The translations under genes and the position numbers were made by a program. The notes below the pieces were generated by a model that saw only the letters and a program-made list of their open reading frames with translations, searched no databases and had not been told where the DNA came from. This document shows, piece after piece, positions 13,275 through 46,367 of a stretch of 55,532 nucleotides of DNA. How positions within the stretch are numbered: the first letter of the stretch is position 1; each line of letters opens with the position of its first letter. This stretch comes from Mesotaenium endlicherianum (lineage: Eukaryota): the NCBI GenBank assembly GCA_009602735.1, contig WELA01003463.1, forward strand, positions 34,720 through 90,251, read 5' to 3'.

Positions 13275-13277
13275 AGC

Positions 13278-13497: not shown

Positions 13498-13509
13498 CCC
13501 CTCCCTTTC
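13498..13509 (-). promoter_or_regulatory. Polypurine tract of element A
   Basis: GAAAGGGAGGGG on the - strand, directly followed by TGTAAG; identical in element B. Confidence 0.85.
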
Positions 13510-13543
13510 AGCTGAGGCGTCCCTGCCTTTCCGCTGAAAGCTT

Positions 13544-22500: not shown

Positions 22501-22507
22501 ACCGCAT
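13544..22507 (-). pseudogene. Element A Gag-Pol-DNMT polyprotein, broken by many stops and frameshifts
   Basis: Starts MRLRSGR (22507). Protease MLDTGA (~20370). DNMT 18750-19730. RT IDLRQGFNQI / YIDD and RNase H TDWS..E..TDH (15273-16322). Integrase WSCDL / LTDQ / DGLAER (13544-14847). C-terminal PHD. Confidence 0.9.
18750..19730 (-). pseudogene. C5 cytosine DNA methyltransferase domain of element A (frameshifted near 19598 and 19043)
   Basis: Motif I VLELFAGLGSG, IV IFAGFPCQPF, VI FVIENV, VIII HRARIFW, X IFGNMI. Confidence 0.88.
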
Positions 22508-22613
22508 ATACAGTTGAATTCTCCGGGTCCCCTTCCAGGTTGAACACCGGCAGCCTTCACAGGCCTCAATCCTCAACTGACTTGGGAATTCTTGTTCACA
22601 TGAACCAATCAAC

Positions 22614-22627
22614 AAGTTCTCAGAAGT
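22614..22627 (-). promoter_or_regulatory. Putative self-priming primer-binding site of element A
   Basis: ACTTCTGAGAACTT (- strand) abuts the 5' Y repeat and is complementary to a 14-mer within Y (12387-12400 exact; 29258-29271 one mismatch). Confidence 0.7.
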
Positions 22628-22772
22628 AGGACAGAAGTGTCTTACTTCCACACAGGCTTTTGCCCAAGTTGAGGGTTTACAGAATGAACAAGTTTTGTGG
22701 TTTGCAAAACTCACATCTAAGCAGCATAACAGGCAATGCCAATTTCAGAGAAAATCGCCCTTCAAGGCTTTC

Positions 22773-23267
22773 TGTAGTGAAATAGATAGATAAAGTACTT
22801 AGTAAAATAGAATTCTTTATCTATTCAAGACAAGGATCTTTGAACACAAGTGGTAGCTTCTTGAAAGAGAGATGGCTTCTTGATAGTTACTATATTTCTG
22901 GAATGTGGCAAGTACAAGAGTGATTCTGGAAAGTCTTTCTATGTTCTAGCTCTTGTTTATATACTTGTTACATAAGTGATTTTTAGGAAGGTGTATGTTG
23001 ATGTGTTGGCACCCAACACATCCCAAAACTTGCCACCTCTTTCTAGAATAATGTACACATGTCCTTTTGACCTAAAAATGGCACATTTGATTTTTGCCAC
23101 ATGGAGTTCTTCTAGGTCTTTCCTCTAACTTCGAAAATGCCTTGGAAGGTTCAAAGGACATGAATCAAGTCACTAGAGTACCTATTCACACTTGAATCCA
23201 CACCATTCTACTCCAAATATATTTGTGAACATTAAAATATATGCAAACTAAAACTCAAATCACTACA
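22773..23267 (-). repeat. 3' LTR of chromovirus C (495 bp); PPT GGGGGGATAA at 23268-23277 on the - strand
   Basis: Near-identical to 28531-29067; TG...CA termini with a 7-bp inverted repeat. Confidence 0.95.
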
Positions 23268-24032
23268 TTATCCCCCCGACAGAAAAAGCGACGTCTCGGC
23301 GCGTCAAGTAAGATCTTACACATGTGGAGCAGACTAGTCAACAGCTTCAAGTCAGATGCCACACATGTGAAGAGGATTAGTCCAAGGCGCCAAGTCAGGT
23401 GCTACACATGTAAGGTGGACTAGGCAAGGTCGTGGGTGGTGTGACCTTATTGGCTAGCCTACTCCTTGATAAAGAAAATTGTATAAGTTGGCCAGAATCT
23501 GCCACAAATTCAAACATTCATAGCGTCCACAAAATTGCTTCAAATCTAAAAATTTGAGTGCCAGACGGACCGCGTCAAAGAATTTTACCGGGTCACCAAA
23601 TTTGAGAGCATTCAAATTCCTGGAGTGTCGTTGAGAGCTGAGAGAGTAGGCACTCCTCCAAGTCTGTGCAGAAACTTCTGAATATCATAAGTCCTTCTAT
23701 ACTTCTCCAAATGCTGCAAACTAAGTCTCAAACTGGGTGCTGTAAGATGTTTTACCAGAGTCTTGAGTTTCAGAGCATTCCAATTTCAAGGGAGGGCAGA
23801 ATGTCAGAAGGCATATTCTGCCCTAACAATGCCAGCAGCCTGACCCCCTTCTACTTAGAGCATCATATCTCTCTCACCAGTGCTTCAAATTCAACAAACT
23901 TGGACTCTAAACGACCGGCTACTCATGGACTACAGCCAAGTAAAATTTCAGGATTTATTATGCAAAGACCTATCACCAGTAGCAGTTTTAGTTTTCCATT
24001 CAGAAACTGCAAAAAGAGAAGAGTGTCTAATG

Positions 24033-27000
24033 TCAATTTTTCCTCTTTCTTGTTCTTGCAGGCTGCCTCCAAGGGGTCTTCTGCTGCTTCTTGATGGTGG
24101 CAGGCTGCCTCCCTGAAGTTATCGGGCTCCTAGTAGAGAGACTTGGGGCTGGTCCAAGATGGGGGTTGGCGGCATGGAAGCGCTTCAACTTTCTCTGAAC
24201 TTTGTCAAGGTAGTGCGCCGCCACCCAACTATTCTCCGAATCTGGATATCCTTTCCACTTGATCAAGTATTGCTGCTGTCCCCTGAAATTTCTCATAGCC
24301 ACTATGTCTTCCACTTTGTACTCCAAATAATCATCCACTATTGTTGGGGCTGGTGGGGTTGTCACACGTCCTGGGAACTTGTTGTCGGGTTGCACATATG
24401 GCTTGAAGAGGGAAGCGTGGAATACGGGGTCGATGTGCATAGTCTTAGCTTGAAAGTTTTAGCTTGAAAGCAACGGGGTTGACTTGCTGGATAATCTTGA
24501 AGGGTCCCAAATACTTAGGAGAGAACTTGCTGTCGGCAGGCATGTTGTTCAGGGAAATATTCTTAGATGATAGTAACACGTTGTCACCCACTCTGTACGT
24601 AATTTCTCTTCTGGATCTGTTCGCCACTCTTGCTTGAGCATCTTGCGCGTGTTGTAGAGCTTTCTTCGCTGCTGTAAGGGCTGCTTCTAATGTCTCTTTA
24701 AAATTTGTGGCTGCAGGTACTTCATCATGGCCAGCCGTGAAGTTCAGCGGCGTGGTTGGATGGAAGCCATAGTTGAGGAAGAATGGGGACTCTTGGGTAG
24801 AGGCCTGCGTCGTGTTGTTGTAGGCAAACTCCTGGGGGGTCAAGTACATGTCCCAATCTTGCTCCAGAGTAGACACGTAGGCCTTTAGAGAGGTCTTTAG
24901 AGTACGATTCATACGCTCGGTTTGCCCATCTGATTGCGGGTGGTAGGCAGTGGACATATCCAGCGATGTACCCAAGTTCTTGAAGAGATTTGTCTAGAAA
25001 TGTCTTGTGAATCTTGGATCTCTATTCGACACAATTCTTGATGGTAGTCCATGGAGTCGGAAGATGTTGTCAAAGATGAGTCTTGCAAGTTGTGGTGCTG
25101 TAGCCTTAGTCGTCGTGGGAATAAAATGAACCATCTTGGTAAGTCTGTCCACCACCGTGAGTATTGCATTATGGCCTCGAGGTGTCACGGGCAGGTCCAC
25201 GATAAGGTCCATTGAGATGTCCGTCCATTGTCTTTCGGAAATTGGTCATGGTTGGAGGAGTCCTCCCGCCTTTTGCGATGATGGCTTGATTCTTTGGCAT
25301 GTGTCACAGCTCCTGCAGTACTCCTTGACTTGCTTAGACATGCCTGGCCAACAATAAGTTCGGGCTAGAACGCCCGTGGTCTTTAGGATTCCAAAGTGTC
25401 CTCCAAGAGGGTTGTCGTGTGCTTCTCGTAGAAGCAAGAGCCGGAGGTCTAAGTCATTAGGAACACATCTCTGGCCCGTNNNNNNNNNNNNNNNNNNNNN
25501 NNNNNNNNNNNNNNNNNNNNNNNNNNNNNNNNNNNNNNNNNNNNNNNNNNNNNNNNNNNNNNNNNNNNNNNNNNNNNNNNNNNNNNNNNNNNNNNNNNNN
25601 NNNNNNNNNNNNNNNNNNNNNNNNNNNNNNNNNNNNNNNNNNNNNNNNNNNNNNNNNNNNNNNNNNNNNNNNNNNNNNNNNNNNNNNNNNNNNNNNNNNN
25701 NNNNNNNNNNNNNNNNNNNNNNNNNNNNNNNNNNNNNNNNNNNNNNNNNNNNNNNNNNNNNNNNNNNNNNNNNNNNNNNNNNNNNNNNNNNNNNNNNNNN
25801 NNNNNNNNNNNNNNNNNNNNNNNNNNNNNNNNNNNNNNNNNNNNNNNNNNNNNNNNNNNNNNNNNNNNNNNNNNNNNNNNNNNNNNNNNNNNNNNNNNNN
25901 NNNNNNNNNNNNNNNNNNNNNNNNNNNNNNNNNNNNNNNNNNNNNNNNNNNNNNNNNNNNNNNNNNNTCAAGGGTCTTGCTGTAGATAAGGATGTCATCG
26001 ATGAATACCACCACAAATCTGTCCAACATGGGCTGAAATATGGTGTTCATCATAGTCATGAAAGTTGCTGGCGCGTTGGTGAGTCCAAATGGTAGGACCA
26101 TGAACTCAAAATGTCCATATCTTGTCCTGAATGCCGTCTTCTCTATGTCCGGTTCTGCGATGCGAATCTGGTGGTATCCGCTCCGTAAGTCAATCTTTGT
26201 GAAGTACTTGGTTCCAACCAGCCGGTCCATGAGCTCATCCATGCGCGGCAGCGGGTATCGATTCTTGATGGTGATCTTGTTGAGGGCGCGATAGTCCACA
26301 CACATCCTCAAGGTACCATCTTTCTTCTTGACAAATAGCACCGGGGCTCCAAATGGCGACTTGCTAGGTCGAATGAAGCCATGCTCCAGTAGCTCCTTGA
26401 TTTGCTTCTTGACTTCGTCTAGCTCCGTGTATGACATTTTGAACGTAGGCCGAGAGATGGGCTTGCTTCCGGGCTCCAACTCTATCTTGTGGTCTACGAA
26501 TCTTTTGGGGGGTAGGCCCTTGGGCAATTCCGGGGAGAACACTTCTTTGTAGTCCTCAAAGACTTCTTGTATCTCCTTGGGAACGGGGCTGCCTTCTTGA
26601 CTCTCGATGTCTTTCTTGATGTCTTTTGGCGTGATCAAGGCCAAAAGAAGCTTGTGTCCCTTCCTCACAAGTCTCTTGAGTTGGAGGGCGGACAATAGTA
26701 TCTTGTGTGCCGGCTTCTTGATGTCTTGGGTCTGGATATTCTGGATTGCGCGCAAAATACAGATTCTTGAAGTGAGTTCATTCTTGATCTTGATAGTACC
26801 GTCTTTCCAATCAACTTGGGGGTTGTGCTTGGTCAACCAAGGCGTCCCTAGGATGACGTCGTACTTGCCCAATTGCATGGGGGAGAATACTACTCTATCC
26901 TTGAAGGACTTGATAGAGAGTGCCAAGGAGTACGTCTTCTTGGAAGGGGTAGTATAGGAGAATCCATCGGGCATCATAATCTCCTCGTCGTGGTCAAGAG

Positions 27001-27090
27001 TTCGCATAGTAATACCGTGCTTGGTGGCAAAATCTGCAGCAATGAAGTTGCCTTGAGCTCCGCTATCCACCAAGATGTGGACCTTCTAAG
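24033..27090 (-). pseudogene. Chromovirus C pol (protease, RT, integrase, chromodomain), disrupted; RNase H hidden by gap 25480-25967
   Basis: [67 protein letters not shown] (catalytic Asp apparently changed to Asn), QSDGQTER, YLGPFKI; chromodomain EYKVEDIV..YLIKWKGYPDSENSWV. In-frame stops at 24994 and 25246. Confidence 0.9.
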
Positions 27091-27214
27091 TTCTCTCCTC
27101 CAAGGTTACCTCTCAAACTCATTGGGGCTGGGACGTCGTCTTCAACGGGGGTCTCCACCTCACTTGTCTTGATGCCTTCTCGTGAAGTGGGTCTTGGGGT
27201 GGTAGGCTCCAGGC

Positions 27215-28493
27215 CTACCGGCGCTGTCCATTTTTTGACAACTTTTTGGGGCATGAGAGTGCACGATGGCCCTTTTCCTTGCAATAAAAGCATAGTCCAG
27301 CCGTCATGAGAGCTTCTTTTTCAGCCAGGGAGAGTCTTGCTTTCACTCCTTGCTGGTTTCCTGCATCATAAGTGTCATTGGAGGGTCTTCCACTCTTCCG
27401 GGCAGCCGCGGGGTCCCTTTTAAGAACTCCAATTTCCATGGGTGTGGGTCCAGATTCGGATGTGGAAGGGGTTGCATACACCCGCGTCGCCGGTACCCGT
27501 GAAGATGAAGGCACGGAGTGCTTGAAATCCAAGGTATCCACCTTGGGCCACTTCAATGAACTTTGAGAAGTCCGTCAAGTCGCGTAATTCCACTTCCTTT
27601 GCCACCTTGGGTTTGAGGCCAAAGATGTAGCGGTCAATCTTCTCCTTGAGAGACATGTTGGGGATCTCAAGAGTGAGGGCGTGAAATCTGGATGCATACT
27701 CTTGAACGGACGTCGTTTGCTTGAGATGGTGGAGCTTTCCTTGTTCAATCTTCTCCGCATTGATGGGCATGAATTGCTTTTTGAGGGCCTCACGAAAATC
27801 TGCCCATCTTGCATATGATGGTGGGGGCTCTTGGCCGAGCATGGGGTGCGCCATAGCTTGATATATAGCCGCTTGATAGTTACGCCACCATGATGTTGCT
27901 GCTCCTCTAAGTAAGGTAACGGCAAAGGGAACGTAGTCCTCCTCGGGTACTTCAAGGAATGCGAGGTACGTCTCCACTTGGTAGAGCCATAAATTCAGGT
28001 TGGCACCTTTCCCGGGGTTGAAAGTGTCGGGTTTGCCGGGCTTGATGAGTTTCCTTGCTCTCGTTGGCTCTTGTGGAGGCGCTTGAGCCGGGGCTGGATT
28101 TTGAGCATTGCTCGCAATAGGGGCAACCATGGCAGCCATAGCTTCTCTTGACGCTTGCACGGTTGCTTCATAGGTGGCCAAGCCCACTTGGTTGTGGACG
28201 GTCATTAGGAAGGCTGCCCACTCATTTGCGGGAACTCCTTGTGGTGGGGTCAACTTTGCTATAGCGGCTGCCACGGGATTTGACGGTGCTCCTCCTTGTG
28301 GTGCTTCTTGTTGTTGCAGATTTCCTTGAGTAGGCTCTCCCATCGGCGCTGGAGGAGGGTGTGCTCCTCCTTGTGGTGCTTCTTGTTGTTGCAGATTTTC
28401 TTGAGTGGGCTCTCCCATCGGCGCTGGAGGAGGGTGTCTTGGAGAGGAAGGGCTTCCTTCGAAAGCTTGCTGTTGGTCTTGAGGATCGGCCAT
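27215..28493 (-). pseudogene. Chromovirus C gag (one frameshift near 27556), with CCHC knuckle
   Basis: KPGKPDTF..WLYQVETY..LLRGAATSWW..LKQTTSVQEYASRF..YIFGLKP; CFYCKEKGHRALSC. A 75-bp tandem duplication (HPPPAPMGEPTQxNLQQQEAPQGGA x2) lies near the N-terminus. Confidence 0.88.
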
Positions 28494-28517
28494 CTTCTTG
28501 TGCTACCAAAGTGCCTA

Positions 28518-28529
28518 GATTTGATACCA
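28518..28529 (-). promoter_or_regulatory. tRNA-Met(i)-type primer-binding site of chromovirus C
   Basis: TGGTATCAAATC one base after the 5' LTR; the first 8 nt match the canonical TGGTATCAGAGC. Confidence 0.75.
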
Positions 28530-28530
28530 T

Positions 28531-29067
28531 TGTAGTGAAACAGATAGATAAAGTACTTAGTAAAACAGAATACTCTATTTATTCAAGACAAGGATCTTTG
28601 AATACAAGTGGTAGCTTCTTGAAAGAGAGATGGCTTCTTGATAGTTAATATATTTCTGGAATTTGGCAAGTACAAGAGTGATTCTGGAATGTCTTTCTAT
28701 GTTCTAGCTCTTGTTTATATACTTGTTACATAAGTAATTTCTAGGAAGGTGTATGTTGATGTGTTGGCACCCAACACATCCCAAAACTTGCCACCTCTTT
28801 CTAGAATAATGTACACATGTCCTTTTGACCTAAAAATGGCACATCTGACTTTTGCCACATGGAGTTCTTCTAGGTCTTTCCTCTAACTTCGAAAATGCCT
28901 NGTCTAGGTCTTTCCATTAACTTCGAAAATGCCTTGGAAGGTTCAAAGGACATGAACCAAGTCACTAGAGTACCTATTCACACTTGAATCCACACAATAC
29001 TACTCCGAATGTATTTGAAAACATTAAAATATATGCAAACTAATATATTATAACTCAAATCACTACA
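28531..29067 (-). repeat. 5' LTR of chromovirus C
   Basis: Matches 22773-23267 apart from substitutions, a short indel near the end and a duplication around the single N at 28901. Confidence 0.95.
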
Positions 29068-31184
29068 CTTTCGCTTAACTTCCACAAGTCACAGCTTACA
29101 AAACTCTGAAACTGCACATCTATGCTGGCCTGGTCGGAGCTCTTCACTCAACACCGCGCCTTAACAGCTCTTCACTGCTCTGCTGGGCTCACTCAGTTCT
29201 TCACTGACAGCTTTACTTGTTAAGATTACTCTTGTTATCAGCAATTCGACAATTGAGACTTTTGAGAACTTAGAAACTAACACAGTACTCACCATTTTAA
29301 GTGTCCCTCGCACGTTTGTGGCATTTGACCCAAATCTGTGCTAATCTCGTAACATATTCTATTCTGCAGCTCTCTACTTTCTACCAGCGAGATCCTCTCT
29401 CGGGAACTCTTGAGGTCTAACCTATGATACCCTTAGGAAGAAATCTTCCAACGTCGCTAGAAGCGTGGCGTCTCGGTTCTTCTATGGCCTTGGGAACTCC
29501 TTCTTCTTCGTGCTCCCTCCGCTTCTTCAACTTCCTTTGACAACAATGCGAGCAAGAATGAGGCAGCTACAGGCAGGACTCGTGCCTTTCACAGGCACCA
29601 CACATTATCCTCTCTTGAGAATGCCAGTGCTTAGTCACAGTGCTTAGCTTGCATGCCATCCTTACCTAGCAGCTCTCACACAGCTTAGGAGTTGTCATTC
29701 CGCATGCATGCATGCCTTGGGATTGTCGCGCGTGACTGGTTAGCCCTTCAGCTGACAATCATGCCTATGTGGCCGACTGACAGCGTTTAGAATGAACGCT
29801 CAAGCCGTGACTAGTCACCTGAGGGTCTTGGCCGAGGTGGCACACAACGCTTTTGCAACATCCCTGCTGTACTTGGCTTAGATAGCCAATTGATAAGTAC
29901 CTTTCCGGGCACTAGCTGGTTCCACTCCTAGCCTTTCGGCTGACTACTCCGTCCAAATCCCCATCCATCCCTGGGTGTGGGTTTGACGTGTCGTGACCAC
30001 TTTGACAGTGATAACGACTTTGACATGACCGCTGACTGAGATCACTCGGTCCTTTGGTCGGTTAGTCAACGCTGACTTCCCGTACCTGGGCGGCCGTGGC
30101 TTGCGCTGTACGTGCAGTACCGCCAAACGGGTAGCAGTCGCGATAGCGGTTGCACTTCGTGGACCAAACCTGATTTTTGGAAATAGGAGTACATCACTCT
30201 GAGGCTGTGCAAGTGGTGAAGCGGCCTAAATTGCTCAAACAATTTGCAAAACAAAAGTTTGGTCCCGCCAACGGTTATAAAAGTCGTCGACGGGCTTTGT
30301 CAATCCAATATGTATGTTAAAAGTTAACCACGTTTGAGAACGCGCATCCAACAGCTTTCATGAAATTTGTTTGTGATGTATTTTAGTGAAGGTTAGAATT
30401 AAAAGGGTGCAATTTCTTCAACAATTTGAGTGACCAATTTATCCCCCCCACAATCTGCCCCATGCAATAAATTAACAGTATTGACATCGAATAAACTAAT
30501 GATGTATGGGATAACCAAAAGTTTTGAATCTAAATTTTTTGAATTGCTGGTTGCACGTTCGAAGCAATTGCTAGAAAGAGCAATAAGAACCATAAGAGCA
30601 ATGAGAACCACATAAGATTACTTGGCAACATTCATTGATAATAACGAAGTAAATGCTTGGATATCCAAACGCAATTTCGTAGGGCTGGTGACCCATACGT
30701 ATGTATTGTTGAGAATTTTGATATTAGATGATGCAACAGTGCACCAACAATATGATTAATGAGGAAAATTGCTACTTTGTATGTCCTGTTGCATTTTGAC
30801 ATCACTGTTATGAGGTTGTAAAGTTTTAACCTTTTCTAGAATGGCAATTGTCAAGCTTCTCCCCATGAAGATGGAAACTTCTGTCATAAACTTTTAACAA
30901 GTAAGGTGACGATACCTAGACAAGCATCTCTCTTGAGGTGTTAGATGCGCAAAAACTTGAAAATTAGGTTTGCCTAACCTCAAAATGCGTACAAATTGGT
31001 ACCTGAGAAGAGAAGGCAGGGGTTCAGCAAGAGAGATGGCAGGGCATGGGGGGGAAACTCTCTTCTAGAATCCGGGTGAAATAGCGCCCAAAATTCAAAG
31101 TTTTTAATTAGCGCCCTGAAATCAAAACAACAGAATTAGTACAGTGAATTAGTGACCTTTAATCAGACAAATATGTACTAATAG

Positions 31185-31487
31185 TGTCGTGCCTAACAGT
31201 GTCGGTCCCTTGGCACGTGCGTAGCCTTCCAGCACGCGTGCCTTCGGCCTGGTTGATGTGTCGGTGGCCCTCCTCACGTGTGGCAGACATGGTTGATTGA
31301 CCTTTGCACGTGTGTCGATGACAAGCCTTACCAGGGTTAACCCATCCCTGGGTTCCTGAACTTGCACCATGCAGCCTTGACCAACACTCAGGGTGACGTT
31401 CTCTGTCACCCGGCTCTCACCGTCTGCTTATCCTAAGACTTTAGCAGAAAATTTAAAAATACTTGCCTTGCCTTAATTCCTCTTACA
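31185..31487 (-). repeat. Element B repeat X, terminal copy (303 bp)
   Basis: Near-identical to 36013-36315. Confidence 0.93.
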
Positions 31488-31823
31488 AGGACGGAAGTCT
31501 CTTACTTCCACATAGGCTTTATGCCTTAAGGTTCTTGGGTTCACAGGTGAGCAAATTGTAGTTTGCAGAAATCACACTCTAAGCAGCTTGACATGCAACG
31601 TCAGATTCAAAGAAAATCGCCCTTCAGGCTTTTCGCTTAACTTCCACAAGTCAGCTTACAAAACTCTGAAACTTCGTCTATGCCTGGGTCAAGCTCTTCA
31701 CTGCCAGGCTGGGCTCACTCAGTTCTTCACTGAGAGCTTTATCTGTCAATACTACTCTCTCTCTTCGAGATGCGAATGCGACTTCTGAGAAGTTGGAAAT
31801 CAACACACAACTCACCATTTTAA

Positions 31824-34800
31824 CACTAGATTTACTGCCTATAGGACCAAAACCGACACCACAATAGCCTATCTTTGAATGCTCATACTAAAATGAGTGC
31901 TTATGTGGTACATAAGAGCCATATATATACTGAATCTACTTTGAGTAAGCAATCTGGCAATGTACTTTTTCCAATTTTTCCGGGATATTTTAGTGTACGT
32001 TTTTGTACTTCAAGGAAAACACACGTGTGAGGTCCCATAAGTACATTTCTTCTCAGCACAATATCCGGAAAGGTACAACTTATTTCTAGATCCTGATTTT
32101 TTCCAGCATTTATCCTGATGTAAGGAGGACAGTGCACTTTACAGATATGCAATTTATTTAGTATCCTAGCTGCTACACCAGCCCAATGTTTGGGACCCAA
32201 ATTGACACCAAGTTTTTTGGTCATTGGTCCCATAAGGAATCTAGGAAATGCATCATGCAGATTTATTGTTTGGTGCATAACTTTTACAATTCTTGATGGA
32301 AATTATTGAAACAAGTTCAGGCATGCTTAGAATACCTTACACAAGCACTATGAAACATGAAAACACCAAAAATATGTAAAGCAAAAATTATGAGTCTTGT
32401 CATGTATGGCTCCATGGCCGACGCGTCGGAAATCTGGTATATGGCAGATGGTGTGAGGTAAAAAAATATTAGTCTTAGAGTTATGCACCTTTCATCAATG
32501 CTACTGTTTAGGAGCACCAGTGGGCAACCTCTTCCTACCACAATCTAGATGCTCTATGTTTCTGGTAGTGTGAAAAATTTCAAAGCAAGGAGTGGGATGT
32601 AAGGCAACATTACAAGGTATACACATGAATTGGCACCTCTTCTTCCGTGCTGCAGCTCCTAAGTCAAAGTACTTAGCACTACACACCACGTAGCTTGTCC
32701 TTTCTCCTTTCTTCACCTTGTCAAGAAAGTGCCTCCCAGTCCACCTTTGCTCTTCAGCAGCTCCTGCTGCACTTGACCTGGTCTGCCTGTCGCGAGGATG
32801 TACCCACTCCGACATCTCCCTCACTAGTTGCAACATGAACAAGTATCTGTCAGCACCAGGGTGGGCCAGCTCATACAATATGTATGCATTAGCAATGGCA
32901 CCATCAAATAAGCCCCAATACAGGCGGTGCCACCACTTCCTAGCTACTTGCTCAGTCTCCACAGAGTAGTTGTCTCTCAAGCATAACTTGTCAAATTGAT
33001 CGACCGCGTCTTTGTACATGTTATAGTGCTTCACAATCTCTGGTGCAGGTATAGTCTTAGTCTCTCCTCCCTTCTGTCTCCTCTCAACCTCAACTACAGT
33101 AAGACCTTGACAGTTAGACAAAAGATACGCAGGCTTCTTGTCTTGCCAAACTACAGCTACGTGTTCAGGCCATTCTGACACGAGCGCTGTGAATGACCCT
33201 TGCTCCGCCTCTTTCTCTTCTGCAGGTATGTCTAAGACCAGCTGCTTAGTAGGATAGTGCATTCTATTTACAACTGTGCCTGTTGCTCCATGGCCAAGCT
33301 CTGACAGTGCTCTCACAAGTACAGGACTTGTGAAGCCTCTATCTAATACAAAGCTGTAAGTCTGACCCTCTGGCAAAGTGCTGACCATCTCCATAATAAC
33401 AGTGGTATTTTTGCCAGGTCTCTTGACCTTGTCAAATACTACAAAGTCCCAGCAGTAATATGTGACACTATCAACCAGTGTGAACAACTCAATGCCAAAT
33501 TTGTGAGGCTTCTTAGGACAATACACCCGGACTGGATACTGTCTATTTCCAGTTGGAATAAGTCTCTCATCAATTGTCATGTGCACACCTGGATTATAGT
33601 GCTCCTTGAATGCTCTTTAGAGTAGATCTATGAAGGGTTGACACTACCAGAGCTTATACTCTCCAGACTTAGGAGGAAATACATCTCTGCCTGCATTAGA
33701 AATAATATGCATGTTTGCTTTTATCTGGACCCACCTATCTCTAGACATGTATTTGCCATAGGCAGGAAACTTTACAGGACCAAAATTGTCATTCTTCCAG
33801 TACATGGTGTACCTAGGCAAGGAATTCAATGCCATAGCAATACACAAGCCATGCCACATGATGAGCTCACTAGTGGTCAGCTGGTTCCATTGCTTTGCAC
33901 CTTCACTATGTGCATATGCATTGGTAACAGAAACCATGGAGTCATACCAGTCTACACCAATGAGAAGGCTCAAAACAGCAAAAGGGCTGAAGTTGTGAAA
34001 GTGCCTTGTGCTCACTCTGGCCAGGCCTGTGGCCAGAGTGCTGACAGGCTTCACCAGCCAAGGTGGAACTTCACCTCTAGCAGCAGGCCTCCAGGAGTAC
34101 TCCTCTCTGTTGGCAGGCTCCTCAACTTCTTCTTCTTCAGCAGCAGCAGGCACCATTGGCTCTCCTTCAGACTCCAGCTCCGTGTCTGAGCTGTACTCCT
34201 CTTCATCTGAGTGCCTGTTCTTCTTCTTGCTGTAGCCCCTCTTTGCCCTCCTCTTAGCAGTCTCCCTTGCCACTACCACCCTGTTCCTTCTCTCTTCCCT
34301 GTTAGCAGGCACAGACATGTCTGGTCCTGTCTGTTTTGATGGTCTCCCTCTCTTTCGTGTTGACTCTATCGGTTCTAAGCCTGTTTTCGACTCTTCCTCT
34401 GTGTCTATTGTGTCTGCTACTGGTGTGGGGGTGTCTTTCGGTGGTGTGGGAGTGTCTTCTGGTGGTGTGGGAGTGTCTTCAGGTTTGGGGGGGGTGTTTA
34501 CAATGCTAGGAGTAACTTCAATCACATGAGAAGCAGGAAGCTGTGAAAGTGGGTCCGAAGAGGCCTCAACTCTAACAACTCCCTCATATGGGCAAAACCA
34601 ACGAAATTCGGGGATAGAAGGCATGTATTGTAGTATTTGGCTGCGTCCCCATGTTTTGTACTCTCCATCGTAGCCAAAATAGATCTTAAACTTGGTTTCT
34701 TTGGTCTTATGCACCTCTTCCTCTAATATTCCGACCAAAAAAAACTCTTTGTAATGCTTTCCAAACTCTTGTGCTGCCCAAGTTTCACCCCAGATCTTAC

Positions 34801-35165
34801 TAGGTGTCAGTATCTTAGTGCCTACAGCTACCGGGGGGCCTGTAGACGAAGAAGCAATGTCAGCCATGGCTTCTATAGCATGCAAAGCAAAAGAAATGAC
34901 AGACAGGAAGAGGCCTGTTCGAATGTCAAAATCGAAACAGAAGGTGACCTCTTCGTGGCCGGCAAACTTACATAACTTCGTCATATATTGGCCGTTATGG
35001 CTAAAACTAATTTGCTGGAGGGGTTTGAGTTATGACACATCCAATGAGCCTATTTTTAGACAATTCTGATTAAAAAAAAAGTAGGCTAAGGGGGTGTAGA
35101 ATTTTGCCTAGTTATGGGACATAAATTGGTTCAGAACCAAAATAGGACCCACAGTATAGCTAGTG
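31824..35165 (-). mobile_element. piggyBac-superfamily DNA transposon (3342 bp)
   Basis: TTAA TSD at 31820-31823 and 35166-35169 (a single TTAA in the uninterrupted Y copy near 45523). Imperfect 14-bp TIRs CACTAGATTTACTG / CACTAGCTATACTG. Transposase ORF inside. Confidence 0.93.
32501..34867 (-). pseudogene. piggyBac transposase, one reading frame with two premature stops (33644-33646, 33617-33619)
   Basis: MSRDRWVQIK, TIDERLIP (D1), PKKPHKFGI, LDRGFTS (D2), YNMYKDAVDQFD (D3), KWWHRLYW, C-terminal Cys/His domain CQFMCIPCNVALHPTPCFEIFH. The start Met is a best guess. Confidence 0.9.
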
Positions 35166-36012
35166 TTAAGGCTGCTTCACACACACACTTGTGGCGTTTG
35201 GCTGAGTCCGTGCTAATCTCCTAGCAGATTCTATTCTCCAGTTCTCCTTCTTCAACCGTGAAATTCCCTCTTGGGAACTCCTACAATCCTAACTTATCTA
35301 CGATACACAGAAGAATCTTCAGCGTCGTCAGAAGCGTGGGGCTTTGGCCCTCCAGTGGCCTTGGGAACTCCTTCTTCTCTCTCCTTCTGCTTCTTGGCAA
35401 AGGTGCATGAGAGTGAATGACATGTCTCAGGCAAGATTCGTGCCTTTGGCAGGCACCACACAGCGTCATCTTTCGAGAATGCCGTGCTTAGTCACACAAC
35501 TTAGTTGCATGTCGCCTCTGCCTAGCCATGCTCAACTCAAACTCGTAGTCACTCAGCATGCATGCACACCTTGTGACTGTCGCGCGTGGCTGCTTAGCTT
35601 CTCAACTGGCAGTCACGCCTAATTGGCTCATGGCTAAGAATTCCTGAGCGGCGTGCAAGCAAATGCCACTTGCTCAAGTTTTCCCAACGGGGCGGCCGTA
35701 ACCTATCTTGGCATTGCAGCCATGACCTGGCTTAATCTGCCAGTCACACAGTACCTGACCTGGTACTTGCTGGGCGGCTCATTGCTGATCCCCAGCTCCT
35801 AGCCTCGCGGCTGTCTTGTCAAAACCTCCCCCATCCCTGGGTGTGGGGCACACTGACATTGACCCCTTGCCAGTGGTCTTGACGCCGCCATAACCGCTGA
35901 CTGCGATGTAATCAGTCAAGTGGTCGGTGAGTCAATGTTGACTTTCAGCACTAGGTGGCCGTAGCTTGCGCTGCGCGTGCGACACCGTCAAACGGATAAT
36001 AGTCGCGACAGC

Positions 36013-36315
36013 TGTCGTGCCTAACAGTGTTGATCCCTTGGCACGTGCGTAGCCTTCCAGCACGCGTGCCTTCGGCCTGGTTGATGTGTCTGTGGCCCTC
36101 CTCACGTGTGGCATACATGGTTGATCGACCTTTGCACGTATGTCGGTGACAAGCCTTACCAGGGTTAACCCATCCCTGGGTTCCTGAACTTGCACCATGC
36201 AGCCTTGACCATCACTCAAGGTGACGTTCTCTGTCACCCGGCTCTCACCATCTGCTTATCCTAAGACTTTAGCAAAAAATTTAAAAATACTTGCCTTGCC
36301 TTAATTCCTCTTACA
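36013..36315 (-). repeat. Element B repeat X, internal copy directly after the PPT
   Basis: Matches 31185-31487; separated from Y by GC (36011-36012). Confidence 0.93.
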
Positions 36316-36327
36316 CCCCTCCCTTTC
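36316..36327 (-). promoter_or_regulatory. Polypurine tract of element B
   Basis: GAAAGGGAGGGG on the - strand, followed by TGTAAG. Confidence 0.85.
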
Positions 36328-38089
36328 AGCTGAGGCGTCCCTGCCTTTCCTGTTGAAAGCTATTATTTTCCAGCCCTGCGGCTAGGAGTTTTAGGAAGGC
36401 ATCAGGACATTCCCATCGTCTTGCCATAGTTTCTTCCTCGCCAATGCAGAAAGTGTGCCAACGGGCACCACATTTATCGCAAGTTACCATTGCTTCCTGA
36501 TTGTCCAGCACTTTGCAGCTGGCACAAGGCGTGGCCGGCACCAATTCCTCGGGCACAACCTTAACTGTGGGATCAATATTCGGCAAATGGCATAGCGAGC
36601 AATTCTGCACGTGGTCTCTTATGGTTTTACCATCAGAACCCTCCAGTTCTAACACACCATTGTCAAACGCATGTTTCACGCGCAAGATCACTGCACCTGA
36701 ACTGGTGTCGATGGTGGTCTTGGTCTGGCGCTTGCGGTAGACAAAGTCTCCTTCTTGAATCTGCGTCATCTGCAGGCGGTAGCTCCCGTCTCGCGTCCTG
36801 GCGTAACGTTGCGTATCTCTTTTCTGTGCAATTTTCAGATTGTATAGTGCAGCCAGTATCATGCGCTCAAATAACGCCTTACGGCGCACCATCACTTTTA
36901 ACAGTTCATCAGGGCTGTCCAGGTCTTTCACCTGTTCAATCTCCTGCTTGATGCTGCTGGGCATTACTGGACTTCTGCCAAACAGTATCTGATATGGCGA
37001 GTAATTTGCCAAGGCAGCCTGCTTGCTAAATCTGTAACCCGTAACCAGCCATGGCAGGGCTAGATCCCAGTCACGCTTGTCATGCTCAAGGCAAAACTTG
37101 CGCAAAGCAGACTTAATGGTTTGCACCATCCTTTCTGCCAGACCATCTGCTTGCGGATGATCTCTAGACGTAGTGCGATGATCGATGAAGCATCTGTCCA
37201 AGAGTTTCTGAAAAGACCCTTGGAACTCAGACCCTTGGTCTGTCAGCACTTCTGCTGGAGCTCCATGACGCACAATCACACCATTGAGGAACGCTTCCGC
37301 GGTCCCTAGACTCTCCTTAGCAGTCAGAGGGACAACCTCTATCCACTTAGAGAAATGCTCAATCATTACCATGATATACTTGTTACCTCGCTTAGACAGC
37401 GGTAGCTCACCTGCAAGATCGCAGCTCCAACGGTAGCCTAGGCCCATGATTGGCAAAGGTTGCAAGTGTGGATGTTGCTGTGTAAAACCAGCCTTGACGC
37501 AATCACAGCTTTGGCAGGCCTTGATCACATCTTCACACTGCTGCTTCATGCCCCTCCACCAGTAAGACAGCTCCAAAAGACTATATGTCTTCTCGACACC
37601 ATAGTGTCCAGTGTTCTCGTGCATTTCTTGCACAAGGGCTCGTCTCCTGATGGGTTCTGGCACTAACTTCTCCTGACCAGTTTCTTCAATTTTGAAGAGG
37701 TTGTTACATTTCCAGCAAAACTTTTTAGCTCGATGGCTTACCTGGTCCTTCTCCTTCACTAATAGTCCTTCCAAGTGAGTTCCCGTCTTCAGCCAGTGCA
37801 TAGTAGCTTGATCTTTCCAGATCTCTGGACTGAACAGGGGTAGAGGCTCAGCTTCACCTGATGCTACTATTCTAGCCATTTCGGCTAGGCACGCCACCAA
37901 CTCTGCTGGGCTGCTTGGGTCTTTGTCCTCTCGAGCTCCTGTTCTGTCGTCTGAAGATGGGTCTGGGTTCCTGCTGAGTCCATCGGCGTCGTTGTTGAGC
38001 ACTCCAGCTCTGTGCACCACCGTCATTTGGTACTCTTGCAGCTTAAGAGCCCAGCGAGCCAACTTACCAGTGAGGTCTCCATTCTTCAT
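36326..38089 (-). CDS. Element B: end of RNase H, DDE integrase and C-terminal PHD finger
   Basis: LARWALKLQEY..ADGLSR; HENTGHYG..CQSC zinc-binding motif; WSCDLAG, LTDQGSEF, DGLAERM; CASC..CDKC..HTFC..WECPD (last Cys lost by a frameshift relative to A). Confidence 0.9.
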   Translation of the reverse strand: MKNGDLTGKLARWALKLQEYQMTVVHRAGVLNNDADGLSRNPDPSSDDRTGAREDKDPSSPAELVACLAEMARIVASGEAEPLPLFSPEIWKDQATMHWLKTGTHLEGLLVKEKDQVSHRAKKFCWKCNNLFKIEETGQEKLVPEPIRRRALVQEMHENTGHYGVEKTYSLLELSYWWRGMKQQCEDVIKACQSCDCVKAGFTQQHPHLQPLPIMGLGYRWSCDLAGELPLSKRGNKYIMVMIEHFSKWIEVVPLTAKESLGTAEAFLNGVIVRHGAPAEVLTDQGSEFQGSFQKLLDRCFIDHRTTSRDHPQADGLAERMVQTIKSALRKFCLEHDKRDWDLALPWLVTGYRFSKQAALANYSPYQILFGRSPVMPSSIKQEIEQVKDLDSPDELLKVMVRRKALFERMILAALYNLKIAQKRDTQRYARTRDGSYRLQMTQIQEGDFVYRKRQTKTTIDTSSGAVILRVKHAFDNGVLELEGSDGKTIRDHVQNCSLCHLPNIDPTVKVVPEELVPATPCASCKVLDNQEAMVTCDKCGARWHTFCIGEEETMARRWECPDAFLKLLAAGLENNSFQQERQGRLS

Positions 38090-38137
38090 CAGCCATAGTA
38101 ATGGTGAGTAATCCGTGATCAGTGTGAAGGGTCTTCC

Positions 38138-39157
38138 CTACAGATACTCTCTGAAGTGTGTGACCGCCCAAACCACTGCCAGCAGCTCTCCTTCATAGGA
38201 CGAGTAGTTGCTCTCCGCTCGATTGTTAGAGCGTGAGGCATAGGCAATGACATACTCCTCTCTAGGGCTTGTGGCCTGAGTGAGTACTGCGCCAATTCCC
38301 ACACGACTCCAGTCAGTGTGCAGATTGAACGGTTTGGAGTAGTCAGGCGTTCGCAAGACTGGGGCTGTTACCAGCCGCTCCTTAAGCTCGTTCATGGCTT
38401 TCTCCTGAGCTTCTGTCCACACAAAAGGTACATCCTTTTTCAGGAGTTCCGTCAAGGGTTTAGCAATTCTGCTATAACCCTTCACAAACTTACGATAGTA
38501 TCCGCTTAGCTCTAACAGAGCTTTCAGCTTAGACACATTCGCAGGTGCAGGTATCTTGTAAATAGCCTCAGTCTTCACAGCCTGAGGGGACATAGCATTG
38601 TTCCCAATCTCATGTCCTAGGTAAGGCACGTGTGCCTCAAAGGCACACGTCCATTGCCAAAGTTCCTTTTGAGCCCAGAAAGCAGTCTTACCTCGATCTT
38701 TTGTTTTCACAGGGATCTGGTTGAAGCCTTGGCGCAGATCGATAATGCTGAACACCTTTCCGGTGGTGGCAATTGCAAAGATCCTTTCCGGCGTAGGCAT
38801 CACATAGCTATCTGGCTCCGTGTAGAGATTCAGTCGCCTGTAATCTCCACACATACGAGTGGCAGTGTAATTGCCGGCCTTGTCCTTTTTAGCGGCTACT
38901 ACTGTAGGAGCCCCATGTACTGAGGTAGATTTTTCAATCATGCGGAGCTTATGCAGCTCTTCACAAGTTTTCTCCACACAGTCCCATTCTGTCTGACTGA
39001 GCTTATGCGGCCCTAGTCTGACTGGGTTATCAGTAGTTAGTGTGATCTCACACACACTGGCAGTGGTTCTACCAATCTCCTCCTGAGTGAAGGCAAATAC
39101 CTTGCGGTGTTTCTTCAGCAACCTTTCTACTTGTGCTCTCTGCTGGGCTGAGACCAT
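38138..39157 (-). pseudogene. Element B RT/RNase H with the YxDD core deleted
   Basis: RMCGDYRRLN, IDLRQGFNQI, KTAFW, then jumps to FEAHVPYLGH; about 65 aa present in A are missing. RNase H LHTDWS..IAYASR..ELLAVVW. Confidence 0.9.
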
Positions 39158-39220
39158 TTTCCCAATGGCAAAAGTCTCAGTTTCAGGTTGCTTCTCCCCA
39201 ACAAAGGCATCCAGTAGTTG

Positions 39221-42200
39221 CTACTCCTTAGGTGCAGGTGGGGGCTTCCCGCCCTCATCCTGGCCCTCAGGCTTTTCTGCCTGATTTTGGCTCTCAGGCT
39301 TTTCTGCCTGATTCTTAGGAGGTGGGGTAGCAGGCTTTGCAGCTTGCTCCTCCGTTGCCATAAGTTCGGCAGCCTGTTTCTTAGGCTTTTTACCTTTCCC
39401 AATGACGCGTCGCCTCTCCTGCGGTGAGGGGTATGTCAGGCGCCTCCGGATGGGCTGCCTCAAAAACATTTCCTCGTCGACTGCAGTCCAACTGGTCCCG
39501 GTTCCTCCTTCTTCACGTGGCCGAGGTTGGTTTGCCATTGGAAAACCTGCGGGATCTGTCCTAGGGCTGATCGCCCAGCCCCATTCTTGCTCAATAATAG
39601 CCATGCGGGCGACGGTCGTGCCATACTCCTCCCTTGCGGGTGGTGTGACCATCCATGCCTGCGCCAATGTTTGCGGCCTTTGAGGTGCCGCTAGTTGTGC
39701 GAGAAAGGCATCATCTGCTGCGGTCAAGCGGCTGATGGTGTTTCTCAGATCCATCAGTTCCCATCCTGGGATTGCAGGTATCATGGGAGCAGGCTCCTCC
39801 GACCTCTGTATCCTAAGATGTGATAGTTGCAACAAGGGCGTGTTCATGCCTGGCGGCACACTAATGCCCAATGCCATTGCCCTGCGAACCAAATCGTCCT
39901 CTCCCTCTCTCTGCAGAATATCCCGCAGAGGCGGAGGAGGTGGGGCTGTGGTTCCTCGCGGAATGCCCTCTCTCTCTCTGAGCCTTCCCCTTATGTTTGA
40001 AATATCGCTCTAGCATCCTCCTAAAAGATGCGTTACCCTCACGGGCCACCTTCCTTGGTCTGCTTGCGCGACTTTTGGGCTTTCCTTGTGCTGTCTCCAC
40101 TTTAGCAGTGCAGGCAGTCACCTCCTGCCATTGCGGTGGTTGTGCGGTTGACTTGGGTTCTGCTACTGGAAGACTGGCAAAAGGAGAACTGGATGTTGGC
40201 GACCTTAATTCTTCATAAAGGTCTGCCGGGCTTGGCCCCATCAGGTGGTCAGCCACCCAGTCGTCTGTCCTCAGCTCCTGTAAGTCAAGCAGATCCAACT
40301 CTGGCGTGGGAAAACGTGGAATCTCTCCCCTAATGTCCCCTTCATTGTTGAGTGATGGAGACTCCAACTCCGAGAGGCCTTCCATCTCTGCATCCTCTTC
40401 CTCCTCCGGCTTCTCTATTCCAGGAGGCGGTAATTCTTCATCCCCTCCTGTGTTGAGCCTCGCCATGTTGATGATAGCTGACTGTAGAACGAGAGCTGCT
40501 TTCGCCACTTTTTCTTCCTTGAGTCGAGGGGCGTCTGCTTCCAGCAACTGCGCCATGATTTGCCTGGTGATCGACTCAGCTGTGCTGCCAACTATGTCTT
40601 GTGGTTGCCCTTTGGCCTCTGGCCCTGGGCTCATCAGAGCAAGTGTGGCGGGCAATCTCTTGGCCGTCGCCTTCTTGTGTTCTTCAAAAATCACCTCCAG
40701 GCAAATGGTCTTTCCAGACCCTCCAGAATTTCCTGAATTCTGACTGCATTCTTCGGCCCATTCGCCAATATTGCACTGGCGTTCTTCATATTTTGATGTT
40801 ACTGCGTCTGGGGATGGGCTCCCAAAGACTTGGTCTGGAGCCATGTTTCGTAACTCAGAACTGGTACATTCTTCCCATTCCGGCATCCTCCCCAATACTT
40901 GGCTGGAGCGTTCTGCAGATGCTGGGACCTCCTGTGATTTGCTGACTGCAGCGCTCACCAAAGGGTTTGCTGCACCAGTTGCCTGGTCTTCCATGGTTAC
41001 GTCTCCTCGCAGCCTCCGCAGCTCTCTTTCCAGAGGGTCGTGTAGAGTCGCCATCCGATTGTCAATTCGCGTCAATAAGTCTTGACACCTGGTCAGCTCC
41101 ACCACTCTGGTTTCTCTGAGTGTTTCATCTTGGTCAGCCTCAGCTGCGTCTCTTTCAACAGCATATTCTTTTTGTCGCTGATACGCTTCCCTGATAGCTC
41201 TTTGATCAGAGGTTGGCACCACATGGACTCCAATCGTTACCGGCCTCGGCCTGGGCATAGGCTTGTCAGAGAACGTCATCTGTTGCCAAGTCATAATCGT
41301 CTCTACCAACCATGTCATGGAGTGATGCCCAATCATATTGTCGAATATCTTCCCAGCGTTGTCCTGTCCCACCATTGCAACAATTTCTTGTGCAATGGAG
41401 TTGGGTACCCCCAGGCACCTTCCCTTCTCTTCAGCTGTCGGCTCTCTCCACTGAGCTTCTCTGTTGTGCACATCTTTGACCATTCCTGGTCCTCCATTCA
41501 CGAAAGCGCGTGATCCTGGGTATGCTGTGAAGGTGGGCAGCACCACCCTCGGCCGGCCTGGCTCGTTGACGACGTACTGTGGGTAGGAATCCCTCCTGAT
41601 CACTGGCTTGGTTTCCACCATCAGTGCTTCTCCCACAGATACTGCCGTTGGCGTGCGCCGCGTAATCTCCTCCATCTTCCTCAGGATTTCAATGGACATG
41701 CCGTTGGTCCAGAATAGTCTGGCCCGGTGTGAGAGTCCTCCGTGCCTGGCGTCGTTGATCAATACATGATGACCCAGGGTGGAGTCAAAGACGAGCCATT
41801 GATCTCCTGGCTTCATCTGGTTGTAATCCATCCCTAGATGTACATTCTCAATCACAAACACTGGTGGGTAGAGATGCTGGCGTTCCCGCAGCATACTGAT
41901 GATCTTCACCATCCTTCCCCAGTGTTGTGCTCGCGGGTCATTGAATCCCCTCCTGTTCCCAACTTGCGAGAAAGGTTGACAAGGGAATCCCGCAAAAATC
42001 CAGTCAATCGTGTAACCATACAGGTCCTCAAACTTCACATCGAGAATGTTTTCTCCAGCAAGACGCACCACACTAGTGGGCACCAATGCCTTGAAATGGT
42101 ACATTTGCCGCATCTGACTCATGACCTCCTCAAATGCCTTAAAAACATTCTCATCATTGTCCACATACAGCACTTTGGATACCTGGATACCTCGCTGAAT

Positions 42201-45035: not shown

Positions 45036-45144
45036 GTACAGTTGAATTTCTCCGGGTCCCCTTCCAGGTTGAGCACCGGCAGCCCTCACAGGCCTCAATC
45101 CCCAATTTGCTTGGAAATTTCTATTCACTTGAACCACGGAACTG

Positions 45145-45158
45145 AAGTTCTCAGAAGT
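45145..45158 (-). promoter_or_regulatory. Putative self-priming primer-binding site of element B
   Basis: Exact inverted repeat of 45484-45497 inside the adjacent Y repeat; identical to the A site. Confidence 0.72.
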
Positions 45159-46367
45159 AGGACAAAAGTCTCTTACTTCCACATAGGCTTTATGCCTTAA
45201 GGTTCTTGGGTTCACAGATGAGCAAATTGTAGTTTGCAGAAATCACACGCTAAGCAGCTTGACATGCAACGTCAGATTCAGAGAAAATTGCCCTTCAGGC
45301 TTTTCGCTTAACTCCCACAAGTCAGCTTACAAAACTCTGAAACTTCGTCTATGCTGGCCTGGGTCAAGCTCTTCACTTAACACCGCGTCTTAACAGCTCT
45401 TCACTGCCAGGCTGGGCTCACTCAGTTCTTCACTGAGAGCTTTATCTGTCAATACTACTCTCTCTTTTCGAGATGCGAATGCGACTTCTGAGAACTTGGA
45501 AATCAACACACAACTCACCATTTTAAGGCTGCTTCACACACACACTTGTGGCGTTCGGCTGACTCCGTGCTAATCTCCTAGCAGATTCTATTCTGCAGTT
45601 CTCCTTCTTCAACCGTGAGATTCCCTCTTGGGAACTCCTACAATGCTAACTTATCTATGATACACAGAAGAATCTTTAGCGTCCTCAGAAGCGTGGGGCT
45701 TTGGCCCTCCAATGGCCTTGGGAACTCCTTCTTCTCTTTCCTTCTGCTTCTTGGCAAAGGTGCGTGAGAGTGAATGACATGTCTCAGGCAAGATTCGTGC
45801 CTTTCGCAGGCACCACACAGCGTCATCTTTCGAGAATGCCGTGCTTAGTCACACAACTTAGCTGCATGTCGCCTCTGCCTAGCCATGCTCAACTCAAACT
45901 CGTAGTCACTCAGCATGCATGCACACCTTGTGACTGTCGCGCGTGGCTGCTTAGCTTCTCAGCTGGCAGTCACGCCTAATTAGCTCATGGCTAAGAATTC
46001 CTGAGCGGCGTGCAAGCAAATGCCACTTGCTCAAGTTTTCCCAATCGGGCGGCCATAACCTTTCTTGGCGTTGCAGCCATGACCTGGCTTAATCTGCCAG
46101 TCACACCGTACCTGACCTGGTACTTGCTGGGCGGCTCATTGCTGATCCTCAGCTCCTAGCCTCGCGGCTGTCTTGTCAAAACCTCCCCCATACCTGGGTG
46201 TGGGGCACACTGACGTTGACCCCTTGCCAGTGGTCTTGACGCCGCCATAACCGCTGACTGCGATGTAATCAGTCAAGTGGTCGGTGAGTCAATGTTGGCT
46301 TTCAGCACTAGGTGGCCGTAGCTTGCGCTGCACGTGCGACACCGTCAAACGGATAATAGTCGCGACA
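45159..46367 (-). repeat. Element B repeat Y, 5' copy (1209 bp, uninterrupted)
   Basis: Matches the split copy at 31488-36010; no X copy lies next to it. Confidence 0.93.

Follow-up and report, generated by a model that had tools for sequence, protein, structure and literature searches.

The window analysed here, a stretch of 55,532 nucleotides of contig WELA01003463.1 from Mesotaenium endlicherianum, carries on its minus strand two diverged copies, A and B, of one retrotransposon, whose interiors are 75-88% alike in a self-alignment of the window (Table 1). On the sense strand, both copies read TG-X1, primer site, polyprotein, purine tract, Y1-CA, a spacer of 2-3 nt, TG-X2 and Y2-CA, that is, the order X-internal-Y-X-Y between TG...CA outer ends. 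Within a copy, the Y1/Y2 and X1/X2 pairs are equally diverged (96.4 and 97.0% identity in A, 94.1 and 95.5% in B), as expected for the LTR pair of an ordinary element. The two copies lie head to tail with about 1 kb between them (30146-31184) and separate target site duplications (TSDs), and a local target preference is possible.

Table 1. Positions of the two element copies and their parts in the window (X2/Y2, joint of the two repeat parts; PBS, primer binding site; PPT, polypurine tract)
Feature	Position	Strand	Basis
Copy A, whole element: TG-X1, PBS, internal, PPT, Y1-CA, GC, TG-X2, Y2-CA	31185-46367	-	self-alignment and end contexts
TSD of copy A, CTAT (sense)	46368-46371 and 31181-31184
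Copy A X2/Y2 joint, predicted minus-strand start fused to predicted plus-strand start	31482-31494, cut 31488/31487	-
Copy A Y2, 303 bp, TGTAAG...CGACA	31185-31487	-
Copy A X2, split by piggyBac-like transposon 31824-35165	31488-36010	-
Copy A attachment-like palindrome CGACA-GC-TGTCG, Y1/X2 boundary	36006-36017	.	end contexts
Copy A Y1	36013-36315	-	self-alignment
Copy A polypurine tract GAAAGGGAGGGG	36316-36327	-
Copy A broken polyprotein	36326-44678	-	Pfam
Copy A self-primer binding site ACTTCTGAGAACTT	45145-45158	-	complementarity
Copy A X1, 1209 bp, TGTCG...GTCCT	45159-46367	-
Copy A predicted self-primer AAGTTCTCAGAAGT inside X1	45484-45497	-
Copy B, whole element, layout as in A	11836-30145	-	self-alignment
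TSD of copy B, CCGC (sense)	30146-30149 and 11832-11835
Copy B X2/Y2 joint	12051-12063, cut 12057/12056	-
Copy B Y2	11836-12056	-
Copy B X2	12057-13274	-
Copy B attachment-like site CGACA-GCT-TGTCG, 3-nt spacer	13270-13282	.
Copy B Y1	13278-13497	-
Copy B PPT, directly before Y1 on the sense strand	13498-13509	-
Copy B self-primer binding site	22614-22627	-	14/14 complement at 12387-12400 in X2
Copy B X1, split by nested Ty3 element 22773-29067	22628-30145	-

The polyprotein is interrupted by stops in both copies. A Pfam scan of the stop-to-stop frames of copy A nevertheless recovers a zinc knuckle, an aspartic protease, a C5 DNA methylase, reverse transcriptase (RT), RNase H, an integrase (rve, E 3.6e-12) and a PHD finger. 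The integrase retains the DDE triad in the form D-D(35)E (D240, D300 and E335 in the numbering of the last frame of copy A). The DNA_methylase match reaches E 4e-15 in A and 1e-12 in B and is weaker in two relatives, L039 and L062, while a structure search did not place the methyltransferase, its matches to solved C5 methylases of bacteria and eukaryotes all being weak. No tyrosine recombinase family was matched in Pfam among the 52 frames scanned (24 + 28, which cover part of the frames of the relatives described below), and with an rve integrase present, an identity as a DIRS or Ngaro element was rejected. Named homologues come from Calypogeia, Riccia, Klebsormidium, Closterium and chlorophytes.

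Several other features share the window. The transposon in X2 of copy A is piggyBac-like (DDE_Tnp_1_7), with a TTAA duplication and the ends CACTAG...CTAGTG, and is inserted at the TATA-like TTAAAA of that X2. The element nested in X1 of copy B is an ordinary Ty3 element with TG...CA LTRs about 88% alike, a 5-bp TSD (CTTTC), gag, protease, RT and SH3_Tf2-1, and serves as a control for the normal LTR layout within the window. About 1 kb from copy A lies a host gene with PMR5N and PC-esterase domains (Pfam; trichome-birefringence-like, 47281-52395), and the segments 5732-6085 and 50810-51565 are 66% alike in inverted orientation, the frames there giving no Pfam match. In A and B alike, X is closed at its PBS side by a short hairpin, GGAAGT-N5-ACTTCC (31488-31504, 45159-45175), and several CACGTG and GCATGC palindromes occur in the attachment-side parts of X and Y.

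The joint and its priming signals

The first-pass annotation had read the X2/Y2 joint as an exact fusion of the minus-strand start and the plus-strand start, a fossil 2-LTR circle junction. Its letters are as described there: the plus strand reads CTTACA/AGGACGG at 31487/31488 in copy A and CTTACA/AGAACAG at 12056/12057 in copy B. The left half aligns to 36013-36315 and 13278-13497, both of which end at the purine tract, and the right half aligns, in the self-alignment, to the repeats starting at 45159 and 22628, which abut the PBS. In neither of the two window copies has a base been gained or lost at the joint, and two substitutions in A and one in B set the right half apart from its sister on the PBS side. 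The PBS-side end does lack a CA, its sense strand reading GTCCT. In element terms, the left half is the start of Y, Y1 itself abutting GAAAGGGAGGGG, and the right half is the end of X, X1 abutting ACTTCTGAGAACTT.

The two sides of the joint had been assigned to PPT and PBS. These boundaries proved exact, but the primer site is not of the tRNA type; it is a self-primer binding site. In copy A, ACTTCTGAGAACTT is complementary at 14 of 14 positions to AAGTTCTCAGAAGT inside X, 325-330 nt upstream, and the same 14/14 complementarity between self-primer and primer site is found in copy B and in two relatives (L045 and L062). A chance origin of 14 matches was seen in 0 of 5000 shuffles in each of four tests, and in 1 of 300 in an earlier unseeded run. 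The predicted self-primer lies 29 nt past the start of a TATA-like TTAAAA (45521-45526) in X1 of copy A. Priming by tRNA was rejected, as the primer site has no TGG and a self-complement is present; the window holds no tRNA gene. Since one half of the joint sits at the PPT and the other at the self-primer binding site, both halves rest on independent priming signals. That a repeat boundary should fall exactly on two independent signals, a purine tract and a 14-nt site fully complementary to one inside X, is beyond chance.

The joint recurs in sequencing runs. Contigs from 4 of 24 listed runs (X1, X5, X9 and X11, which come from four studies and carry three different organism names; the window itself may derive from run X1) were aligned to 36011-46420 of the window, and the joint 36315/45159 is present, and is the leading form, in all four runs examined. 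Among the 15 of 115 joints listed for run X1 together with a table of joint letters, variants comprise the exact register with substitutions, one PBS base kept, and two kept (twice), as well as one added base templated by neither side. The Y1-X2 junction in the runs has 2-nt spacers, and in run X5 three contigs pass from the CA end of Y into unlike flanks.

More distant relatives were collected with an alignment of 27 integrase sequences as the query, and the best 80 of 534 confirmed metagenome loci were analysed. After the PPT, 32 of these have Y-X-Y and 27 a single Y, with 21 left unclassed (contig ends or other families). Removal of loci sharing a flank leaves 28 independent Y-X-Y loci and 25 independent single-Y loci. 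The former fall into two families (24 and 4 loci) with repeats unlike each other and unlike those of the window, the integrase being 42-48% identical in these two distant families. A scan of viral contigs gave 22 pattern matches and no confirmed relative.

Far from being unrelated to the priming signals, 26 of the 28 independent joints in the two distant families lie within 3 nt of both the PPT and the PBS signal. Scored by eye, ten of the 24 joints of family 1 read TTCAAT/ATACATG; five fall short of this by 2 nt and three by 1 nt, four exceed it by 1-3 nt, and the other two show larger losses, of about 7 nt in L010 and of most of X2 in L052 (2479-2549). Among the four joints of family 2, again by eye, three are in a common register and the fourth carries an extra G. 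The comparison across copies that had been proposed for the joint has therefore been made, and it gives what was predicted, namely precise joints with gains or losses of 1-3 nt and retention of the first PBS bases. The priming signals themselves differ from family to family (AGTTTTTCTAGAAT with ATTCTAGAAAAACT; CATAGTTCTTTGAG with CTCAAAGAACTATG), self-primer and PBS covarying across the three families. In family 1, a TATAAA lies about 25-32 nt upstream of the self-primer; no TATA-like box is evident upstream of the self-primer in family 2. The joint is real, exact and a trait of the family.

The internal site is conserved in its own right. The two halves of the palindrome in copy A are the outer ends of the element, and the joint lies 303 and 1209 bp from it. 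Its form GACA-NN-TGTC is conserved, with a spacer of 2 nt in 28 of 28 independent Y-X-Y relatives and copy B as the exception. The spacer is mostly GC or one of AC, GT and AT, the last three being what cytosine deamination of GC would be expected to give; the true spacers of L010 and L067 are AC and AT. A CA-NN-TG(T/C) site after the PPT occurs in six families, including L001, L047 and L054, whereas the PPT-side start is not conserved (TGTAAG, ATACAT, AGTTG, CATTTG). The 4-bp TSD is exact in both window copies and in 10 of 15 two-ended loci, a count made without L020 and L079, whose ends are decayed; three more match at 3 of 4 positions, two mismatch, and no 5-bp match appeared anywhere tested. 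L017 has no TSD with either choice of left end. Of the 24 family-1 joints, 5 end at a CA situated 2 nt in from the commonest PBS-side end; some processing of these ends may occur, although AT microhomology explains such joints equally well.

One relative, L054 (1-9171), is a self-closing contig with a 123-bp terminal overlap, long open gag-pol frames and a PHD finger. Its PPT, at about 4708, is followed 50 nt on by a CA-GC-TG site. An attachment-like match at 9088 was rejected, being inside the protease frame, and the site 50 nt past the PPT was used; Pfam gave no DNA methylase match in this locus. It is likely a collapsed young repeat.

Probable end joining with internal cutting, and the alternatives

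The best explanation overall, which we hold with moderate confidence, is that each cycle joins the ends of the cDNA afresh, a circle being the probable result, and that the DDE integrase cuts the internal CA-GC-TG palindrome and inserts the element at that point of its sequence. Of its parts, renewed joining of the ends together with internal cutting by the integrase seems very probable, while closure into a circle before integration may be called somewhat probable. The RNA would likely start at the self-primer in X1, as the TATA spacing suggests, and end in X2. Its 5' end, paired with the site that follows X1, would prime the minus strand there as in Tf1/Tf2. Ordinary strand transfers, applied from the established model, would then yield a linear Y-gc-X-PBS-internal-PPT-Y-gc-X, the ends of which carry no conserved CA/TG. 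These ends would be joined with small errors, and the observed variants are exact joints, joints with one or two primer-site bases kept, joints with one extra base, and short losses. On the precedent of foamy virus, the left-hand palindrome would be nicked by the integrase behind the CA of each strand, giving a 2-nt 5' overhang at both ends at once and insertion with the 4-bp duplication that is seen. Speculatively, use of the left-hand site alone may reflect the order of synthesis: that repeat would be the first to become double-stranded, following the second strand transfer, and would capture the integrase.

A constraint on this cycle comes from the forms that are present and absent. The 19 two-ended copies comprise 12 X-internal-Y-X-Y (10 loci and the 2 window copies) and 7 X-internal-Y; the mirror product X-Y-X-internal-Y is absent from all 19. 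Upstream of X1, neither the 2 window copies nor 18 independent loci have a Y; in those loci an upstream Y scores 7-13, where a true Y scores 92-122 (one locus offers only 158 nt). A joined linear Y-X-internal-Y-X cut at the left site gives X-internal-Y-X-Y and cut at the right site X-Y-X-internal-Y, and a symmetric free circle, having two identical internal sites, predicts the mirror product about half the time. Dead copies do not explain its absence, since X-internal-Y copies should be equally dead and yet are common. The description as a fossil 2-LTR circle thus stands for the exactness of the joint, but a symmetric circle sits poorly with a mirror product seen in none of 19 copies against 12 of the observed form.

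A single Y without a joint is found in 25 of the 53 independent loci that have a Y. These loci (L014, L041, L072, L074 and 21 more) have the form TG-X-internal-Y-CA with 4-bp TSDs and no terminal repeat. The annotation had proposed that the cDNA ends are ligated rather than integrated and that circularisation is an obligatory step. Joining of the ends, as opposed to their integration, agrees with 26 of 28 joints, whereas "obligatory" is too wide, for seven two-ended copies are X-internal-Y without a joint and four of them have an exact 4-bp TSD. Such copies are without the second X that strand transfer requires; one-repeat circles, cuts at both sites or a later recombination of Y1 with Y2 could each produce them. 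Single-Y loci are not older than double-Y loci by branch length (medians 0.092 and 0.077, p 0.39), a comparison that does not tell direct formation apart from recombination at a later stage. Joining appears to be needed only for copies with a second X, that is, those able to replicate.

A serious rival, though an unlikely one, is that insertion comes first and joining later. Here, the integrase would cut the left internal site of the linear cDNA and host end-joining would seal the resulting chromosomal break, with no free circle. Both the product and the joint variants would be the same, and the two of 28 joints with larger losses (L010 and L052) suit such repair; the other 26, at 3 nt or less, are tidier than a chromosomal break might give, and this order of events supplies by itself no reason why the right-hand site is never used. 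That reason is supplied by a template jump, in which RT would pass end-to-end to the other cDNA end and copy Y as far as the integrase-bound left site, leaving an RT-made joint in a nicked molecule. The single extra bases at the joint would also fit untemplated addition by RT. However, losses of 1-2 nt at AT microhomology and the larger losses fit end-joining as well, and we regard the jump as a serious rival but quite unlikely.

Whether the joint is remade in each cycle or inherited as an old scar can be weighed from its variation. Under inheritance of the kind proposed for PAT and Ngaro, the RNA would end in Y2 and the Y1-X2 junction would template the ends each cycle. The layout is indeed that of split-direct-repeat elements, as far as the accessible parts of the reports describe them (PMC13465315; PMC5890265, Fig. 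4c legend), and inheritance explains why there is a single form with a joint. Against this, 14 of 24 family-1 joints differ from the commonest length, and the internal spacer is constant at 2 nt in 28 of 28 relatives; a variable joint beside a constant internal spacer is expected if the joint is remade in each cycle and the integrase cuts internally. The joint is also far more variable in length than the repeats, where the family-1 background between Y1 and Y2 is 20 indels in 4404 aligned bases, or 0.027 per 6 bp. Moreover, self-primer, PBS and PPT sit exactly at the joint and covary across families below 50% integrase identity, as they would not at an unused scar, and no tyrosine recombinase occurs in the 52 scanned frames. 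Y1 and Y2 match in length within a copy (303/303 in A, 220/221 in B), although A and B differ, and in L045 (11627-12560) Y is longer in both positions (314 and 305 bp), which shows that Y1 and Y2 share one template. The closest match of Y2 is its own Y1 in 8 of 23 cases, where 1 is expected, and is not in the other 15 (the ranks of L010 and L067 rest on a shortened Y1). On the tree, counted without L023 with its long branch from an insertion, joint classes require 12 changes, and 660 of 1000 shuffles need 12 or fewer, so there is no clustering; with 7 of 44 branches well supported the tree is star-like, and the absence of clustering is weak evidence. Taken together, the kept priming signals, the joint variability, the Y1/Y2 ranking and the tree favour fresh joining, and an inherited scar looks very improbable. 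A one-off rearrangement or assembly artefact, in which tandem or nested ordinary LTR elements look permuted, might be prompted by the nested insertions and N runs of the window but is hardly credible, being largely refuted by recurrence: the layout, each time with its own TSD, occurs in two window copies that have diverged and in 10 two-ended independent loci, and the joint in all four runs.

A wider version of the preferred reading, joining in each cycle with internal cutting, would extend from green algae to bryophytes, and we consider it evenly poised between true and false. RT-made ends would be uncoupled from integration ends throughout the clade; the cDNA would have to close into a 2-LTR circle, of which one chosen palindrome is opened on both strands in a single step, as in IS3; and the left site would be picked by the order of synthesis or by methylation from the element's own DNMT. 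If true, the circle, a dead end for retroviruses, would be the only route to a replicating copy. Every full copy keeps a genomic record of an end-joining event, and as the integrase site is a separate conserved 12-bp palindrome, the question of the integration precursor becomes testable. The element has a natural integrase that probably accepts circular donors by way of one internal site, and it suggests a route to split direct repeats that needs no recombinase.

Known systems compared

The textbook view holds that LTR elements integrate linear cDNA by its own ends and that 2-LTR circles are by-products, an early model of retroviral integration from the 2-LTR circle having been abandoned for linear DNA. 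With canonical Ty3/gypsy elements, the window family shares the order gag-protease-RT-RNase H-integrase, the DDE triad, a primer site after the 5' repeat with a PPT before the 3' repeat, and a target duplication within the range of 4-6 bp (4 bp here). Canonical elements, however, have two whole LTRs with TG on the PPT side and CA on the PBS side, whereas here the integrated ends lie inside the repeat, the PBS-side end is GTCCT, and the PPT-side start in relatives is ATACAT or AGTTG. The proteins of the element make it Ty3/gypsy, its ends do not, and it stands outside the split-direct-repeat groups with a recombinase. In bacteria, a DDE enzyme of the IS3 family likewise opens abutted inverted ends with a short spacer on a circle, although IS circles are made by transposase, with no RNA.

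The closest element in print is KnitGypsy-Dnmt3 of Klebsormidium nitens, the repeats of which are described as arranged like those of a DIRS element and the domains as Gypsy (PMC5890265, de Mendoza et al., 2018, Fig. 4c legend). It shares the cytosine methyltransferase within a Gypsy polyprotein and the A-coding-B-A-B repeats; a K. nitens integrase-PHD protein, P0020, matches the window at 49% identity (E 4e-134, pairwise) and may not be KnitGypsy-Dnmt3 itself. The text of that paper gives no junction, primer, TSD or mechanism, though its figure images may say more, and the name is absent from those supplement files that were searched, to which an image-only supplement may add. A 2026 preprint mentions, in its accessible part, streptophyte Gypsy-DNMT3 without repeats (10.64898/2026.05.21.726589). 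A literature search for split direct repeats and split or permuted LTRs with gypsy/Ty3, integrase or circles, subscription journals and Repbase lying outside it, found no mechanism. New relative to print are the self-primer, the PPT/PBS joint, the CA-NN-TG site, the 4-bp TSD, the joint-less copies and the missing mirror form. A survey of plant LTR elements kept, by its accessible method, solely TG...CA LTR pairs between TSDs (PMC6317226); finders with that requirement would miss the X-internal-Y-X-Y clade, and single-Y copies of LTR elements are likewise invisible to LTR finders.

Split direct repeats have otherwise been described for tyrosine recombinase elements, and PAT, Ngaro and VIPER share the layout A1-ORFs-B1-A2-B2, with a circle as the proposed intermediate (PMC13465315, PMC7192593, as far as their accessible text goes). 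Those elements use a tyrosine recombinase, and the window family has instead a DDE integrase, a protease, a PPT, a primer site and a 4-bp TSD. In the accessible reports, the self-primer in R of Tf2 pairs with its PBS (PMC5341516), and Tf1/Tf2 and the plant Tcn1 share a primer site complementary to the predicted 5' end of their own RNA but have two whole LTRs with TG...CA cDNA ends (PMC5341516, PMC6317226). Relative to Tf1 and Tcn1, the window family has a PHD finger and no chromodomain match.

Circles as real integration precursors have been argued for foamy virus and HIV-1 (PMC1180852, PMC4372172). According to the accessible text of these reports, foamy virus integrase cuts the junction palindrome with 2 nt between the CAs, giving both processed ends at once (PMC1180852), and HIV-1 2-LTR circles can be reopened and integrated (PMC4372172; also PMC1905944). 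Prototype foamy virus and HIV-1 share with the window family a palindrome with CA on both strands, at the same 2-nt spacing in foamy virus. However, their cut falls at the LTR-LTR junction itself, with a provirus colinear with the cDNA (PMC1180852, PMC4372172, again from the accessible text), whereas in the window family and its relatives the two cDNA ends are 110-310 bp and 290-1200 bp away from the predicted cut site and the junction stays internal. By this analogy, the joint would work like a foamy-virus-type circle junction that has been displaced from the site of the integrase.
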